A DNA stretch of 47,364 bases from Parcubacteria group bacterium (GTDB taxonomy: Bacteria > Patescibacteriota > Minisyncoccia > Moranbacterales > UBA11712): positions 1 through 47,364 of the forward strand of contig JBAZRT010000001.1 in the NCBI GenBank assembly GCA_041662765.1, read 5' to 3'. The notes under the pieces were generated by a model that worked only from the letters and a program-made list of their open reading frames with translations, was not told the origin of the DNA and ran no database searches. Position numbers and translations under genes: made by a program. Shown here in pieces: positions 17,037 through 31,228 of this stretch (its first letter is position 1; each line of letters begins with the position of its first letter).

Positions 17037-17115
17037 TAGCTGTTCGTTGAAATCGGCACAACGCTTAGAAATGGCAATTTTGCCAATAACGTTGAAAGAA
17101 TAGGAGATATTGCTC

Positions 17116-17742
17116 ATGACTAAGGTGGGGAAAATCAGGTTTTTGGCCGTGGTCTTTGCTCTGCTTCTTTGCTGGGGCTGTGGCGGGATGAGTTTCAGCT
17201 CCAAGCCGGAAGCGTCCAGCACTGAAGTCTTTGGTCCGATGCCAGCGGAACAGCTTCTCAAGATGGCCGAGGACCGCTTCAAGGCTGGCGACTATTTGGC
17301 CGCCATGCGCGCCTATGACGCGTTCGAAAAGGATCATCCCGGGAGCCAGCTCATGCCATTTTGCGTTTTCGGCCGTGGTCTCAGCTATATGCACGAAATG
17401 GAGACCATCGACCGCGACCAAGCCATGTGCCGCAAAGCCGCTGAGCAGTTTCAGCGGGTCGTGGACCGGTATCCGGATTGGAAGTACACGGCTGATGCGA
17501 AAGCGCATCTCAAAAAGTGCCGTGGCAACCTGGCGGAACACGAATTTTATGTGGGCTCCTATTATCAGCGGACCGGGCGCTATCGGGCCGCATTGGTTCG
17601 CTACCAGGGACTTGCCCGGGATTATCCGGAGTTCACCAAAGGAGCCGAAGTCAAAAAAGGCATCGCGGAATGCGAAGCCGAACTGGCCAAGGCGCCAAAG
17701 CCAAAGGGATTGATCGCCCAGCTCTTCGATGCCCAGTGGTAA
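17116..17742 (+). CDS. BamD/YfiO-like TPR outer-membrane lipoprotein (208 aa)
   Basis: The AGGAGA SD precedes the ATG at 17116. A lipobox-like LLLCWGC-GG is present. TPR-like repeats include AEDRFKAGDYLAAMRAYDAFEKDHPGS, AAEQFQRVVDRYPDWKY..DAKAHL and EHEFYVGSYYQRTGRYRAALVRYQGLARDYPEF, a typical BamD signature. Confidence 0.75.
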   Translation: MTKVGKIRFLAVVFALLLCWGCGGMSFSSKPEASSTEVFGPMPAEQLLKMAEDRFKAGDYLAAMRAYDAFEKDHPGSQLMPFCVFGRGLSYMHEMETIDRDQAMCRKAAEQFQRVVDRYPDWKYTADAKAHLKKCRGNLAEHEFYVGSYYQRTGRYRAALVRYQGLARDYPEFTKGAEVKKGIAECEAELAKAPKPKGLIAQLFDAQW

Positions 17743-27412: not shown

Positions 27413-27504
27413 GACATAAACTTCTTCCCGCCGAATATTTCGGGGGTTGAATCTCCCAAAAGCGTTTTTTGGAATATTCAACCCTTGAAAACGAGGGTAG
27501 CTCG

Positions 27505-27534: not shown

Positions 27535-27609
27535 TATGCGACTCCGCCTGGGCGGAGTCAAAAACAAAAAATTTCATGCAACTCCGGTTTTTTCCGAAAG
27601 CATATACCG

Positions 27610-27690
27610 CAGATAATCCAGTGTTTTCTCATCTGGCTGCGAGAGCAAAATTTTGCTATTCAGATAATCCAGTGTTTTCTCATCTGGCTG
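27610..27690 (+). repeat. Two perfect 30-nt direct repeats separated by a 21-nt spacer containing a 14-nt palindrome
   Basis: cagataatccagtgttttctcatctggctg occurs at 27610-27639 and at 27661-27690. The spacer cgagAGCAAAATTTTGCTatt contains the palindrome. Each repeat carries CCAG..CTGG. Confidence 0.85.
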
Positions 27691-27758: not shown

Positions 27759-30041
27759 ATGGTCAAAAATCTGTTAGCCACTGTGCTGCTCGGCCTTTCG
27801 CTGTTTTTCTGCAGCGGCCAGGCTCAAAGCGCAGACCCGATTCCCGGAGATTCCGGTGAGAAGGGTTGGTATAGGTGCTCCGGCGGCGGAGGAGAGGCTT
27901 CGACAGCCGCTTCCGCCGAAAAGTCTGATCCTGGTGTGGTCCGCGAGTGGAAAGATGCCCGCGACGGCCAAATTTATCAGGAAAGACTGAACCAGGAGAG
28001 CGGGCAGTTTTACACGGTCCGCAAACCCAACAAATGGGAAAGCGCTAAGAACGAAGATAGCGACAACCCGCGCAGGTACATCCAGCCTAACACCGACCAG
28101 CCCAAGCGAGTCATCTCGAGTCGCGCTCCCAAAAAGGGTGAAACCTGGACGGTGGGTGTGGTCAGAATGCCCAAGGCCATGCCAATTGCGGCCGGCAAAG
28201 GTCTCTTCTGGGGCGTTGGCCTCAACAAGGCCGAAAACAAGCTGGTTAAGGTGTCTTTGCTTCCGTTGGAAATGAAAGCGGATGACAAGAGCGACACCCG
28301 TCCGGCTGTTTTCATCGCCGAGGGCCAGCTGCCTGAGAACGCTCCGATCATTTGGGGCGACCGCTATCCCGAAAAAAGATGGTGGAAACGCATGGGCGAT
28401 GCCTATGGCGAAACCGTCATCTGGAACCGGGACGGGCAGCATTTCAAGCTGCTCAACGGGTTTTTTGATGAGCCGGAACGACTTGCCAAGTTTGTCGATG
28501 TTTACGGCGGCAAGATTCCGACGTCTAAGGCTCACATGGTCCAAGTGCCGGCCAACGAGGTTTTTCAACAGGCCAAGAAGCTTGGGTACAAAAACCTGAG
28601 CAATGGGGATATGTTGATGCCCGGCGCGGATCTCTATGATCTGCGCGAGCGGCATAGCCAGATTCCGGCGATCTACTTTTACCAGCGTCTCATGAAAACG
28701 GGATTCCCTACTTTCACGGTCCCGTTTGCCGCCGCCTCGTTTGGCATCGGCTCTGGAATACAGGTTGCCTCGGCATTGCTCGATACTCGGCAGTTCGATA
28801 TCGAGTGCCTCTCAAACCAAAAAGGCATGGAAGCCTTCGAGAGGATGCAGAGCAATCTGAAGAGCTCGTCTGCTCTGGCAAGTGTGACTCCGAGATATTC
28901 CGCCAAAGCGGGGATTTCGAGAGTTGCGAATGCACCTCCAGTCGATGACTGCGGGCGCATTCTGAGCCAGCTGACGGCTGGTGCATACCCAATGGGTTAT
29001 GCGGCCGACGAACTGCGGGAAATGCGGTGGCTTTATGACCGCGAGATCCGCAATGAAATGTTCGCCGGCGGCGGTTGGTCTAGTAGCAACGTGCCTCCTG
29101 GTACTGTTGCGACCAACAGTCGCGCAGCCAATTTCCATTGGCGTCCCTTCGGCGTCTATGATGCCGATAGTGGGTTCTGGTTTGGACCCACGTATGAGTA
29201 CGGCAACTGGGACTGGCATTATCGGTCCCGGGGATGGAACGGCGATGGTGAAGGCAGGCGCTGGGCTGCAGGGCTCTCATCTGTCTATACCACCAAAACG
29301 TCCTGGGGCGGGATAAAGTGGTATAACAAAGCCCTGTTTGCCCGCTTCTCTGACGGCCAGATCCATCGGGCGGAAGGCATCTTCGGCACCTATGTCGATG
29401 CCTGGCACAAGCCGCTCTGGCAAAACAAGAGTGAAAGCGTCCAACTCTTCTCCGGCTTTAGTGGAGGAGTAGAAGTGAATACCGGATCCGGATTGCTGGC
29501 GGACTTGAGTCCGACGGTATTGCGCATCAGGGTCTGCGGGGCGGACGCGCTTCGCATAGATCCGGGCATCCGGTTCCTCATGCCCTGGCCTGCAAAAACG
29601 AACTTGCTGGGCTGGGGCGTCAAAGTGATGGCGCTCGACGGAGGGATAGGCTGGTACGCCAATTTCTTCCCGGGCCACCTGAACTTCAAAACCTTCGGCG
29701 GATCTCTGCCGAGGCTGATCAACTTTGCGCGGCGCATTCAGGCCTGCGGAATCAAGGAAATACCGTTCCCGCCGGCCGATATTTGTCCGCCCACCCCGGT
29801 TGTAAAGGTGCCAGAAGCGCCTTGTCCGCCGAAAATCGTGCCGCCGCCTCCTCCGGCCCTCGAAACGCCGCCGGTGAAAATAAAGAAAAAGCGGCCGAGC
29901 AAGAAGAAGCTGCGCCTCCGGTGTCCGGTAGAAAAGCCGGAAATGCCGATCCAGGTGCCGCCTTTGCCTAAGCTGCAAAGCAAACTGTCGCTCCCTGATG
30001 GCCATCAGGCGAGCCGGCAAGTACCACCCAAGGTAATGTGA
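27759..30041 (+). CDS. Large secreted hypothetical protein (760 aa) with a W/G/Y-rich C-proximal region and a proline-rich basic tail
   Basis: The signal peptide is MVKNLLATVLLGLSLFFCSGQAQSA. The W/G/Y-rich stretch reads FHWRPFGVYDADSGFWFGPTYEYGNWDWHYRSRGWNGDG..GGIKWYN. The tail reads PPADICPPTPVVKVPEAPCPPKIVPPPPPALETPPVKIKKKRPSKKK. Composition is GC-rich. Confidence 0.65.
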   Translation: MVKNLLATVLLGLSLFFCSGQAQSADPIPGDSGEKGWYRCSGGGGEASTAASAEKSDPGVVREWKDARDGQIYQERLNQESGQFYTVRKPNKWESAKNEDSDNPRRYIQPNTDQPKRVISSRAPKKGETWTVGVVRMPKAMPIAAGKGLFWGVGLNKAENKLVKVSLLPLEMKADDKSDTRPAVFIAEGQLPENAPIIWGDRYPEKRWWKRMGDAYGETVIWNRDGQHFKLLNGFFDEPERLAKFVDVYGGKIPTSKAHMVQVPANEVFQQAKKLGYKNLSNGDMLMPGADLYDLRERHSQIPAIYFYQRLMKTGFPTFTVPFAAASFGIGSGIQVASALLDTRQFDIECLSNQKGMEAFERMQSNLKSSSALASVTPRYSAKAGISRVANAPPVDDCGRILSQLTAGAYPMGYAADELREMRWLYDREIRNEMFAGGGWSSSNVPPGTVATNSRAANFHWRPFGVYDADSGFWFGPTYEYGNWDWHYRSRGWNGDGEGRRWAAGLSSVYTTKTSWGGIKWYNKALFARFSDGQIHRAEGIFGTYVDAWHKPLWQNKSESVQLFSGFSGGVEVNTGSGLLADLSPTVLRIRVCGADALRIDPGIRFLMPWPAKTNLLGWGVKVMALDGGIGWYANFFPGHLNFKTFGGSLPRLINFARRIQACGIKEIPFPPADICPPTPVVKVPEAPCPPKIVPPPPPALETPPVKIKKKRPSKKKLRLRCPVEKPEMPIQVPPLPKLQSKLSLPDGHQASRQVPPKVM

Positions 30042-30194
30042 AAACCGAGTCTCGGCCGGAGCTTATCCCACAGCATGGGAAAGTAACCGGCCGTACCCGC
30101 GGTATAAATTGTTATAAGGAGAAGAATCACAAAATAAGGCAAAAACAACTAGACCCGCGATTTGTTCGCGGAGATCATCCAAGAGGAGAGGATT

Positions 30195-30584
30195 ATGAAG
30201 GCAATGACGAAGGCGTTGGTTCTGTTTTGTGCGCTGTCTCTCTGCTTTGTCGGCGTGGTCAGCGCCAAGGTTTTGGATGCCGGTGTGTTTCCCACGGCCG
30301 ATGCCCAGGGGAACGTGACCATCCCGCAACTGCCCAATGGCAAGATCCTCCAGATTTACGTCTGGAACGATAGCCAAGGCGCCGCGGAAAAGAAATTGGG
30401 CGCCACGCACAGCTTCAAGCTGAATCCCGGTGACGGTTTCAATTTCACCTGGAGCGGCCCCCAAGGCGTAGCCTGGCAGCTGGTGACCAGAGGTAGTCAG
30501 GTCGGTGGAAGCCTGGTCGTGGACGATTCCTGGAAGGACGCCAACGGCAAAGTCGGGTGCAAGTACCTTTTCCCGGGCAAATAG
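30195..30584 (+). CDS. Small secreted hypothetical protein (129 aa)
   Basis: The ATG at 30195 is preceded by GAGGAGAGG. The signal peptide is MKAMTKALVLFCALSLCFVGVVSA. The mature part is beta-rich. Confidence 0.6.
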   Translation: MKAMTKALVLFCALSLCFVGVVSAKVLDAGVFPTADAQGNVTIPQLPNGKILQIYVWNDSQGAAEKKLGATHSFKLNPGDGFNFTWSGPQGVAWQLVTRGSQVGGSLVVDDSWKDANGKVGCKYLFPGK

Positions 30585-30656
30585 ATCTCGGCCGGACCCC
30601 GGCCACACACCGCCCTCATAAGGAGGTAACAAAGGGAGCAAAGAAGTAGAAGTATT

Positions 30657-30718
30657 GAGCCGTATCAGAATGCTGTCCGCCATCGCGTGGACATGCTACT
30701 GATACGGCTCTTAATTTT
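30657..30718 (+). terminator. Long-stem rho-independent terminator
   Basis: GAGCCGTATCAG (30657-30668) pairs with CTGATACGGCTC (30699-30710) and is followed by TTAATTTT. Confidence 0.7.
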
Positions 30719-30759
30719 GGAAAAAATTAAAACGGCAAGCTGAAATCATGCTTGCCGTT
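30719..30759 (-). terminator. Rho-independent terminator (minus strand)
   Basis: AACGGCAAGC (30731-40) pairs with GCTTGCCGTT (30750-59). The - strand reads the hairpin followed by TTAATTTTTT. Confidence 0.7.
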
Positions 30760-31228
30760 AGTCTTGAGAGCGATCGCCATAAACAACAACCTTTGTTGCC
30801 TTTTCTTCCGCCCAGTCGAACAGTCGCTTGGCGTCTTTTTTCTCTCCCGCATGCACGCATCCGCGAGTGGCTTTCTGGCGGGTAACGTCTTTTTTCAGCG
30901 GAACAACTCCGGCGTGGATGGCCATTCGGGTGCGCTCATTCCAGATGAAAAACAGCGAAAAGGGCATCCAGGTGCTGTATTGGTTTGACCAATATTTTGG
31001 GTCTTTGCGCTCTACCCGATAGATTCCCTGCGGAGTTTTGAATTTTGCGTCCCCGGTGATAGCGGGGAAACGAAGTTGTTCTTTGCCATCCAGATAAGCG
31101 ATGATTTCCTGGCGATATTGATCCACAAAAATGACCTTCCCTCTCCAAAATTCTTCCGATGTCTCCGCGTGGAGAGCGGAAGCAGTGAAAAGAACGAAGA
31201 AGCAAATTATAAGATGAATTTTTTTCAT
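30758..31228 (-). CDS. L,D-transpeptidase (YkuD) domain protein (156 aa)
   Basis: It has the signal peptide MKKIHLIICFFVLFTASALHA. The YkuD active-site pattern HxG...(S/T)xGC(V/I)(H/R) is present as IHAGVVPL...ATRGCVH. Confidence 0.75.
   Translation of the reverse strand: MKKIHLIICFFVLFTASALHAETSEEFWRGKVIFVDQYRQEIIAYLDGKEQLRFPAITGDAKFKTPQGIYRVERKDPKYWSNQYSTWMPFSLFFIWNERTRMAIHAGVVPLKKDVTRQKATRGCVHAGEKKDAKRLFDWAEEKATKVVVYGDRSQD

Follow-up and report, generated by a model that had tools for sequence, protein, structure and literature searches.

A predicted autotransporter-like barrel in a cassette-exchanged protein encoded within a cell-envelope polysaccharide locus of Moranbacteria-type Patescibacteria

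To our knowledge, the single-chain 12-stranded β-barrels described to date are confined to outer membranes and are BamA-dependent. Here we describe a gene for a secreted 760-residue protein with a predicted barrel of this type (the large gene), which is followed by a gene for a secreted 129-residue protein (the small gene), in a Moranbacteria-type member of the Patescibacteria. The two genes lie within a 47,364-nucleotide stretch of DNA (assembly GCA_041662765.1, contig JBAZRT010000001.1, positions 1 to 47,364; hereafter, the window) from a 765-kb genome that is 90% complete (G000). By fold, the closest described systems are the type Va autotransporters, such as BrkA, AIDA-I, Hbp, EspP, NalP, and EstA. 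Other features of the locus recall two systems of different kinds. In Hyphomicrobiales, barrel proteins of the outer membrane are cross-linked to peptidoglycan by L,D-transpeptidases via a conserved N-terminal alanyl-aspartyl motif (reviewed in PMC12729407, citing Godessart et al., 2021). In S-layer genes, which are linked to wall-polymer genes, the anchor is conserved and the surface domain varies (bioRxiv 10.1101/2025.04.02.646754). We found no paper describing the family of the large protein.

The predicted barrel of the 760-residue protein

The first-pass annotation of this DNA had reported the two open reading frames with their signal peptides, a gap of about 150 nt between them (153 nt as measured), a stretch rich in Trp, Gly, and Tyr, and a Pro/Lys-rich tail with four cysteines, all of which are present. 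It had assigned neither protein to a family, and this still holds at the sequence level, as searches of Pfam, NCBIfam, and the PDB with single sequences and a 12-sequence profile gave no match for either protein. The large protein can be divided into the following parts:

27759-30041, + strand: open reading frame of the large gene, 760 residues
27759-27830, + strand: signal peptide, residues 1-24, with the predicted signal peptidase I cut before Ala25; the site is conserved as A-x-[SAC] followed by A-[DE]-P-I-P-G
27831-28058, + strand: N-module, residues 25-100, comprising the mature Ala-Asp-Pro-Ile-Pro-Gly end and then a three-strand β unit
28059-29048, + strand: body, residues 101-430
29049-29708, + strand: predicted 12-stranded, autotransporter-like β-barrel, residues ~431-650
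29709-30041, + strand: short amphipathic helix, residues 650-663, and then a disordered, Pro/Lys-rich polybasic tail to residue 760, with the stop codon

We modeled the large protein with AlphaFold2 using an alignment of 12 sequences. The model has a mean predicted local distance difference test score (pLDDT) of 55.7 and a predicted template modeling score (pTM) of 0.39 overall, but residues ~430-650 reach a pLDDT of 75-90 and form 12 long antiparallel strands of 8-26 residues. Short helices at residues 397-426 precede the barrel, with a pLDDT below 50 for residues 370-429. The Trp/Gly/Tyr-rich stretch corresponds to residues ~455-650 and contains 15% Gly, 6.4% Trp, and 6.8% Phe. In an exhaustive VIA-align search with a stated background Z of 7-8, the best matches were BrkA (3QQ2, Z 19.4, with a root-mean-square deviation (r.m.s.d.) of 2.3 Å over 199 residues), AIDA-I (4MEE, Z 18.4), and Hbp (3AEH, Z 18.2), the three spanning an r.m.s.d. 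of 2.3-2.7 Å over 199-218 residues. EstA, EspP, and NalP followed with Z ~15 and intimin with Z 13.0; the r.m.s.d. across the autotransporter barrels (Z 15-19.4) was 2.3-3.6 Å over ~200 residues. Foldseek against the PDB returned outer-membrane barrels only, led by autotransporter β-domains, FapF, OmpG, and invasin, and PF03797 autotransporter clusters ranked top in a shape search of the ESM-Atlas. The Trp/Gly/Tyr-rich region, which had been called barrel-like from its composition, is thus predicted to be a 12-stranded barrel of the outer-membrane type resembling autotransporters.

The strands show a two-residue alternation of hydrophobic or aromatic with polar residues, which is kept across the 12-sequence family, including alleles that are only ~20% identical. 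Because a 12-stranded barrel is too wide to enclose a hydrophobic core, the hydrophobic face should point outward, to lipid or to a neighboring protein. According to the first-pass annotation, clear homology to a characterized family such as the autotransporters would have removed the novelty of the protein. Such a likeness was found at the level of the fold but not at the level of sequence: PF03797 gave no match at E≤1 in any of the 12 family members, and the alignment of the family with E. coli Ag43 by hhalign had a probability of 0.05. A six-frame search of the window's genome for PF03797 was also negative, with positive controls.

As for the other parts of the large protein, the first half of the body is β-rich in the model, with a pLDDT of ~70-80, and the second half is helical or of low confidence; a feature search of the ESM-Atlas with residues 25-430 gave no usable match. 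The last 110 residues contain 25.5% Pro, 12.7% Lys, and four cysteines and carry a net charge of +14. Among these cysteines, C722 is the only one that is invariant in the family. No part of the protein is better conserved across allele types than the polybasic core of the tail, PPVKIKKKRP.KK.LR.RC. We rejected the idea that the tail or the N-module is a tag common to several proteins of the genome, as neither has a second copy there. The allele of locus L009 (G047:C9, 1339-3666) lacks the A-[DE]-PIPG start, and long Lys/Arg runs make its tail much more basic; its locus carries a different type of small gene (family Z, see below) and no YkuD gene ahead of Wzy. Both proteins of the window begin with Sec-type signal peptides as read from the sequence, with predicted cuts between AQS and ADPIPG in the large protein and between VSA and KVLDAG in the 129-residue protein. 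Neither contains a proper lipobox. We rejected a lipoprotein reading of the large protein, as the cysteine in its signal peptide lies outside any lipobox and is missing in the homologues.

A resident and exchangeable part of an envelope locus

The large protein has few relatives. Six were recovered from 5.8 billion proteins with a word-indexed search, and 12 from 1.84 billion representatives with an exhaustive profile search. The named relatives are designated as ‘Candidatus Moraniibacteriota’ or ‘Parcubacteria group’, and all named or placed ones belong to one family of Patescibacteria. With one genome per species, the protein family occurs in five of the 19 genomes of this taxonomic family, in four of its 11 genera, and no convincing match was found in 282 other genomes of the order. 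The large protein is thus restricted to a small number of genera within a single Moranbacteria-type family.

The large gene resides in a cell-envelope polysaccharide locus. The order of genes is a MacA/MacB-type ATP-binding cassette exporter, DUF4012, a Wzz-like protein of 228 residues, the large gene, the small secreted-protein gene, a YkuD gene on the opposite strand, a Wzy-like polymerase, glycosyltransferases with a TIG protein, and dTDP-rhamnose genes. This order is common to every relative with enough flanking DNA (L001-L004 and the contigs of P0005, P0017, and P0003). In the window, the elements around the large gene are:

27438-27490, + strand: hairpin with 24-nt arms after the Wzz-like gene, dividing it from the upstream region of the large gene
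27610-27639 and 27661-27690, + strand: two perfect 30-nt direct repeats, 70-150 nt 5' of the start codon of the large gene (none expected by chance)
30195-30584, + strand: open reading frame of the small gene (family X), 129 residues, a secreted protein modeled as a β-sandwich, in a variable slot
30657-30710, + strand: terminator-like hairpin closing the two-gene unit, with 22-nt arms that are 82% complementary, followed by TTAATTTT
30758-31228, - strand: secreted, stand-alone YkuD L,D-transpeptidase of 156 residues (PF03734, E 3e-16), convergent with the two-gene unit

A terminator hairpin with a 12-bp stem had been proposed at the end of the unit; the hairpin is there, but its stem is longer and less perfect. 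Each 30-nt repeat holds an inner palindrome, CAGAT...ATCTG, and among the related loci compared, exact copies occur in the window's genome alone. The repeats are possible candidates for an operator or promoter element. Similarity to the DNA of L008 picks up again at 27608, near the repeats.

Comparison of the alleles revealed a mosaic. The flanking proteins of the window are 60-88% identical to those of L001 or L003, and the large protein only 28-32%. Between lineages, the body and the barrel are only 19-30% identical and vary jointly in at least five types. The N-module (residues 25-100) follows a different pattern, being 79-81% identical to that of alleles with a 19%-identical body and only 36% identical to that of an allele with an 89%-identical body; it is exchanged independently of the body. 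Breakpoints in the DNA recur at ~28050-28063, the junction of N-module and body, at ~29827-29847, the start of the polybasic tail, and at 30588, four bases past the stop codon of the small gene, from where the DNA is conserved again across all relatives. Relative to L004, the small open reading frame alone is replaced, from 30208 to 30587. These comparisons show that the N-module, the body plus barrel, the tail, and the downstream gene have been exchanged as separate cassettes between lineages. We rejected a diversity-generating retroelement as the source of variation, since no pair of template and variable repeats exists anywhere in the window. A gene for a bAvd/23S_rRNA_IVP-like protein, an accessory protein of such retroelements, lies at 21747-22100 of L003, ~10 kb downstream of the homologous locus in genome G054.

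Within one allele type, the large gene is under purifying selection. The ratio of non-synonymous to synonymous substitution rates (dN/dS) between the window and L004 is 0.07 for the body and 0.13 for the barrel, compared with 0.05-0.16 for the neighboring genes, and that between the window and L007 is 0.03 for the barrel; these are rough values, as dS is near saturation.

A small secreted-protein gene follows the large gene in every locus that extends far enough, but the slot is filled by four unrelated families:

family X: the window, L001, L021, and L022, with a 38%-identical version in L028
family Y: L004
family Z: L009 and L026
family V: L003

The first-pass annotation had regarded the 129-residue protein as the partner of the large protein. 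A small secreted protein is indeed always encoded there, but the pairing is not fixed, as three unrelated families take its place elsewhere; because the downstream gene is swapped among four families, the ‘pair’ is a slot rather than a fixed partnership. The 129-residue protein models as a generic β-sandwich resembling FN3 or carbohydrate-binding modules. We did not accept a more specific assignment to FN3 or CBM56, with Z about 6 and Foldseek E values of at least 0.02, below the chance level, and we disregarded a sub-threshold match over 10 residues (E 0.04) to the Trp-ring model of Hia. The predicted complex of residues 25-665 of the large protein with the 129-residue protein scored 0.02, below the mark, and bears on binding in neither direction. 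Families X, Y, and Z each end in a cysteine followed by a short basic or hydrophobic stretch (..GCKYLFPGK, ..ACLKVKAG.., and ..GCRLIVK, compared at 30195-30584 of the window, 12528-12911 of L004, and 3522-3884 of L026, respectively). This hints at a C-terminal feature shared by the three families despite the lack of detectable sequence homology.

The two genes stand out by composition. Their GC contents are 0.57 (large) and 0.58 (small), and their GC contents at third codon positions (GC3) are 0.66 and 0.75, versus ~0.45-0.52 for the neighboring genes. The genome mean GC3 is 0.486 (s.d. 0.061), and the large gene ranks third highest of 726 open reading frames. The second-highest value belongs to an open reading frame of 269 residues outside the window (contig C2, 93-899, - strand; GC3 0.665, GC 0.56), a further candidate outlier in composition. 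High GC3 is also found in the relatives' alleles with 19-30% identity and in the small genes that fill the slot, although these belong to unrelated families, for example at 12411-12797 of L001, 12528-12914 of L004, and 12573-13145 of L003, all at 0.65-0.80. The GC-richness therefore belongs to the slot and not to a single gene lineage; repeated import or a recombination-associated GC bias could possibly maintain it.

The unit had previously been described as the cargo of an island. The syntenic position shared by relatives down to 19-30% identity, the purifying selection, and the common excess of GC3 are at odds with a recent import: the large gene is an old, lineage-specific, swappable part of the envelope locus.

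Proposed attachment to the cell and competing explanations

At the mature N-terminus, the motif A-[DE]-P-I-P-G is kept in allele types that share only 19-30% identity. The predicted mature protein starts with ADPIPG in the window and in types A and C and with AEPIPG in types B and E, and we found the motif nowhere else in the genome. The adjacent 156-residue YkuD protein has a signal peptide, the catalytic His, and the Cys in a TRGCVH motif. Besides it, the genome encodes one other YkuD protein, of ~400 residues. Close orthologues of the 156-residue enzyme (46-86%) occur only in G000, G089, G054, and G068, the carriers with the Ala-Asp end. Genome G047, whose allele lacks this end, has no close orthologue, and the remaining genomes encode only the ~400-residue YkuD protein at 22-28% identity. 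Among the metagenome loci, alleles with Ala-Asp adjoin YkuD wherever the contig reaches, and those with Ala-Glu in one of three cases. By analogy with Hyphomicrobiales, the Ala-Asp end may be cross-linked to peptidoglycan by the adjacent YkuD enzyme, an idea that we put forward only tentatively and consider rather doubtful.

We hold with slightly better than even confidence that the large protein is a Sec-exported, modular protein of the cell envelope, whose ends hold to the cell and whose body and barrel form a swappable outer layer. In such a scheme, the protein would be exported by Sec and held at the wall by its two better-conserved ends. Through its charge, the polybasic, Pro-rich tail would bind either the membrane or an anionic polymer synthesized by the products of the flanking genes, and the amine of the N-terminal Ala-Asp would be joined, possibly covalently, to peptidoglycan by the small YkuD enzyme. 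The swappable body and barrel would be exposed and form the lattice or pore of an outer protein layer. Phages, hosts, or competitors would exert the pressure under which they are replaced as a whole, in the manner of S-layer gene cassettes, and the small β-sandwich protein would serve as a variable accessory of this layer. Since an even-stranded barrel has both chain ends on one side, it fits two cell-proximal anchors. A bolder generalization, to which we assign a low probability, is that some Patescibacteria, a lineage regarded as strictly monoderm, build a largely proteinaceous outer layer from single-chain barrels of the outer-membrane type that fold without BamA. Both ends of these barrel proteins would be attached to the wall, one through the cross-linked Ala-Asp and the other through the polybasic tail, and the result would be a rudimentary or ‘toga-like’ second layer whose barrel is swapped like an S-layer cassette.

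Several points weigh against an anchored layer protein. The barrel comes from a single AlphaFold model, computed with 12 sequences and having the low mean pLDDT given above, and strands 1-6 have a weaker hydrophobic face than strands 7-12. Pfam searches of the family matched none of the anchor domains SLH, CWB2, LysM, and SH3. The location of the protein in the cell and its abundance are presumed. We rejected expression-driven codon bias as the cause of the high GC3, as RpoB/C, AtpD, enolase, and RecA have GC3 values of only 0.46-0.55. The co-occurrence with YkuD may reflect plain linkage, as the genes are adjacent and only a few genomes, related to each other, are involved, and two alleles with Ala-Glu (the P0017 contig and L026) lack an adjacent YkuD gene. 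Finally, if the body threaded out through the barrel, like the passenger of a classical autotransporter, the N-terminus would be distal, and no link to the wall could be formed.

Whether this bacterium possesses an outer membrane of the usual kind bears on the alternatives. Six-frame searches of the window's genome detected no Omp85/BamA, LpxC, or TolC-type OEP, with positive controls, and Omp85 was also absent from four other carriers (G054, G068, G047, and G089; 89-99% complete), with seven of 14 control genomes positive in the Omp85 search. A BamD/YfiO-like lipoprotein is encoded in the other GC-rich block of the window (17110-17742; Pfam YfiO, E 2e-26). With the BamD-like protein as query, this gene was found in the window's genome alone among the 19 genomes of the taxonomic family, versus five for the large gene. 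The block that holds it is thus strain-specific and has a history distinct from that of the barrel gene, whose family is independent of the BamD-like protein; we rejected a functional link between the blocks on these counts. A sister genus that lacks the barrel gene has other genes in the slot following DUF4012 (L017, G003:C25, 2250-6250). These are a YkuD-like fragment, two GC-rich genes whose products are Pro-rich and either secreted or lipoproteins, a sortase-like gene, and a gene for a protein with Ser/Gln repeats that terminates in LPATG followed by a hydrophobic stretch and a basic tail. The LPATG protein with the sortase-like gene is a monoderm style of surface anchoring, and the slot after DUF4012 is a general site for variable surface proteins.

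We consider it unlikely that the large protein is a classical outer-membrane protein, either in a lipid-containing outer layer of this bacterium or inserted into the outer membrane of a Gram-negative cell to which the bacterium attaches as an epibiont, with the N-terminal 400 residues as the passenger and the barrel as the translocator or pore. Such a role would agree with type Va translocator domains as the best structural matches, with the helical, low-confidence linker ahead of the barrel, with the alternation of a hydrophobic/aromatic and a polar face in a barrel presumably too wide for a hydrophobic core, and with the BamD-like lipoprotein of the second GC-rich block. It is hard to reconcile with the absence of Omp85 from the carriers and of LpxC and TolC from the window's genome, the missing sequence match to PF03797, and the rarity of the BamD-like gene (1/19 genomes). 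Furthermore, 110 residues follow the barrel, so the usual terminal β-signal is missing, and the sister genus fills the slot with proteins of monoderm-type anchoring. That no insertion machinery is encoded would instead suit a released effector directed at a host or competitor, whose barrel would insert itself as a pore while the polybasic tail binds the anionic surface of the target. Secretion and hypervariable allele types are as expected in an arms race, and the charge of the tail (+14, and even more basic in G047) fits as well. We nevertheless think an effector quite improbable, because the gene lies inside a wall-polysaccharide locus and not beside secretion or immunity genes, and there is no conserved immunity-like partner, the downstream gene being itself secreted and variable. 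Known pore-forming toxins also build their barrels from oligomers and not as single-chain 12-stranded barrels.

The barrel could also be a modeling artefact; the protein would then be an ordinary orphan adhesin whose Trp/Gly/Tyr-rich region adopts some other β-rich fold of the surface type, for instance a solenoid or an array of sandwiches. The 12-sequence alignment, the overall pLDDT and pTM, and the unclear hydrophobic face of strands 1-6 leave room for this. We consider it very unlikely, given the local pLDDT of 75-90 over 220 consecutive residues, the close superposition on autotransporter barrels (2.3-2.7 Å over ~200 residues, Z 18-19 against a background of 7-8), and the two-residue periodicity that persists in ~20%-identical alleles. 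We give hardly any credence to the idea that the genes were recently imported from a GC-rich diderm as a foreign island devoid of function. The GC content of 0.57, the GC3 of 0.66-0.75 against a genome mean of 0.486, and the diderm-type fold point that way, but the gene occupies one position in all relatives across four genera, the GC3 is equally high in 19-30%-identical alleles and in the unrelated slot genes, and dN/dS is low within an allele type (0.03-0.15). In addition, no homologue outside the clade was found among the 1.84 billion representatives, and no mobility genes or flanking repeats were found; the island is thus contradicted.

A predicted barrel fold kept under purifying selection in an ultra-small bacterium that lacks BamA and lipopolysaccharide raises the question of how barrels fold without the β-barrel assembly machinery (BAM) and of what the outer envelope of the candidate phyla radiation consists. 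With its N-module, body and barrel, tail, and downstream gene swapped separately, the locus offers a clean natural example of how a surface protein of uncultured symbionts evolves by cassettes. A concrete biochemical prediction follows from the pairing of the Ala-Asp end with a dedicated L,D-transpeptidase.

Comparison with described systems

Like the large protein, type Va autotransporters are exported by Sec and have an extensive N-terminal region, while their C-terminal part contains an antiparallel 12-stranded barrel that a single chain of ~220-250 residues forms. The large protein differs from them in the absence of sequence similarity; no β-helix passenger is seen in its model, and the bacterium lacks BamA and a lipopolysaccharide pathway. 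Its last strand ends near residue 648 and is followed by the helix and a 97-residue disordered tail with the C-terminus PPKVM, whereas an autotransporter ends on an aromatic residue. Membership in the type Va family thus fails on three counts, namely sequence, the non-C-terminal barrel, and the lack of BAM.

Inverse autotransporters of type Ve (intimin/invasin; 5G26, 4E1T) resemble the large protein in having a 12-stranded barrel, a short helix or linker, a C-terminal extension, and, as proposed here for the large protein, a wall-proximal N-terminal part; the match with intimin runs to residue 656 and takes in the start of the post-barrel helix. In contrast, the large protein has no LysM or Big domain according to Pfam, its extension is a disordered polybasic tail and not a series of Ig or lectin domains, and its N-terminal part comprises 400 residues compared with ~150.

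Omp25 and Omp2b of Brucella (Hyphomicrobiales; Godessart et al., 2021, cited in PMC12729407) combine an Ala-Asp mature start with a barrel and a dedicated secreted L,D-transpeptidase, as the locus described here may do. They are BAM-inserted porins of diderms, whereas the link proposed here would have to accommodate Glu in some alleles and the lack of an adjacent enzyme in others.

The resemblance to TonB, suggested by the first-pass annotation, is one of composition alone, i.e., an extended Pro- and Lys-rich segment. The large protein has a cleavable signal peptide in place of the N-terminal membrane anchor, it matches neither TonB_C nor TonB_N, and no ExbBD genes accompany it.

As for the exchange of cassettes, the locus is comparable to the S-layer cassettes of Firmicutes, such as C. 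difficile slpA and the modular SLLPs of Peptostreptococcaceae (bioRxiv 10.1101/2025.04.02.646754), with a hypervariable surface part, conserved anchoring parts, a location in a wall-polymer or envelope locus, and the exchange of whole modules between close relatives. It differs from them in lacking an SLH, CWB2, or SH3 anchor and in that the variable part holds a predicted single-chain barrel of the membrane type, which, as we propose, may contribute to a lattice.

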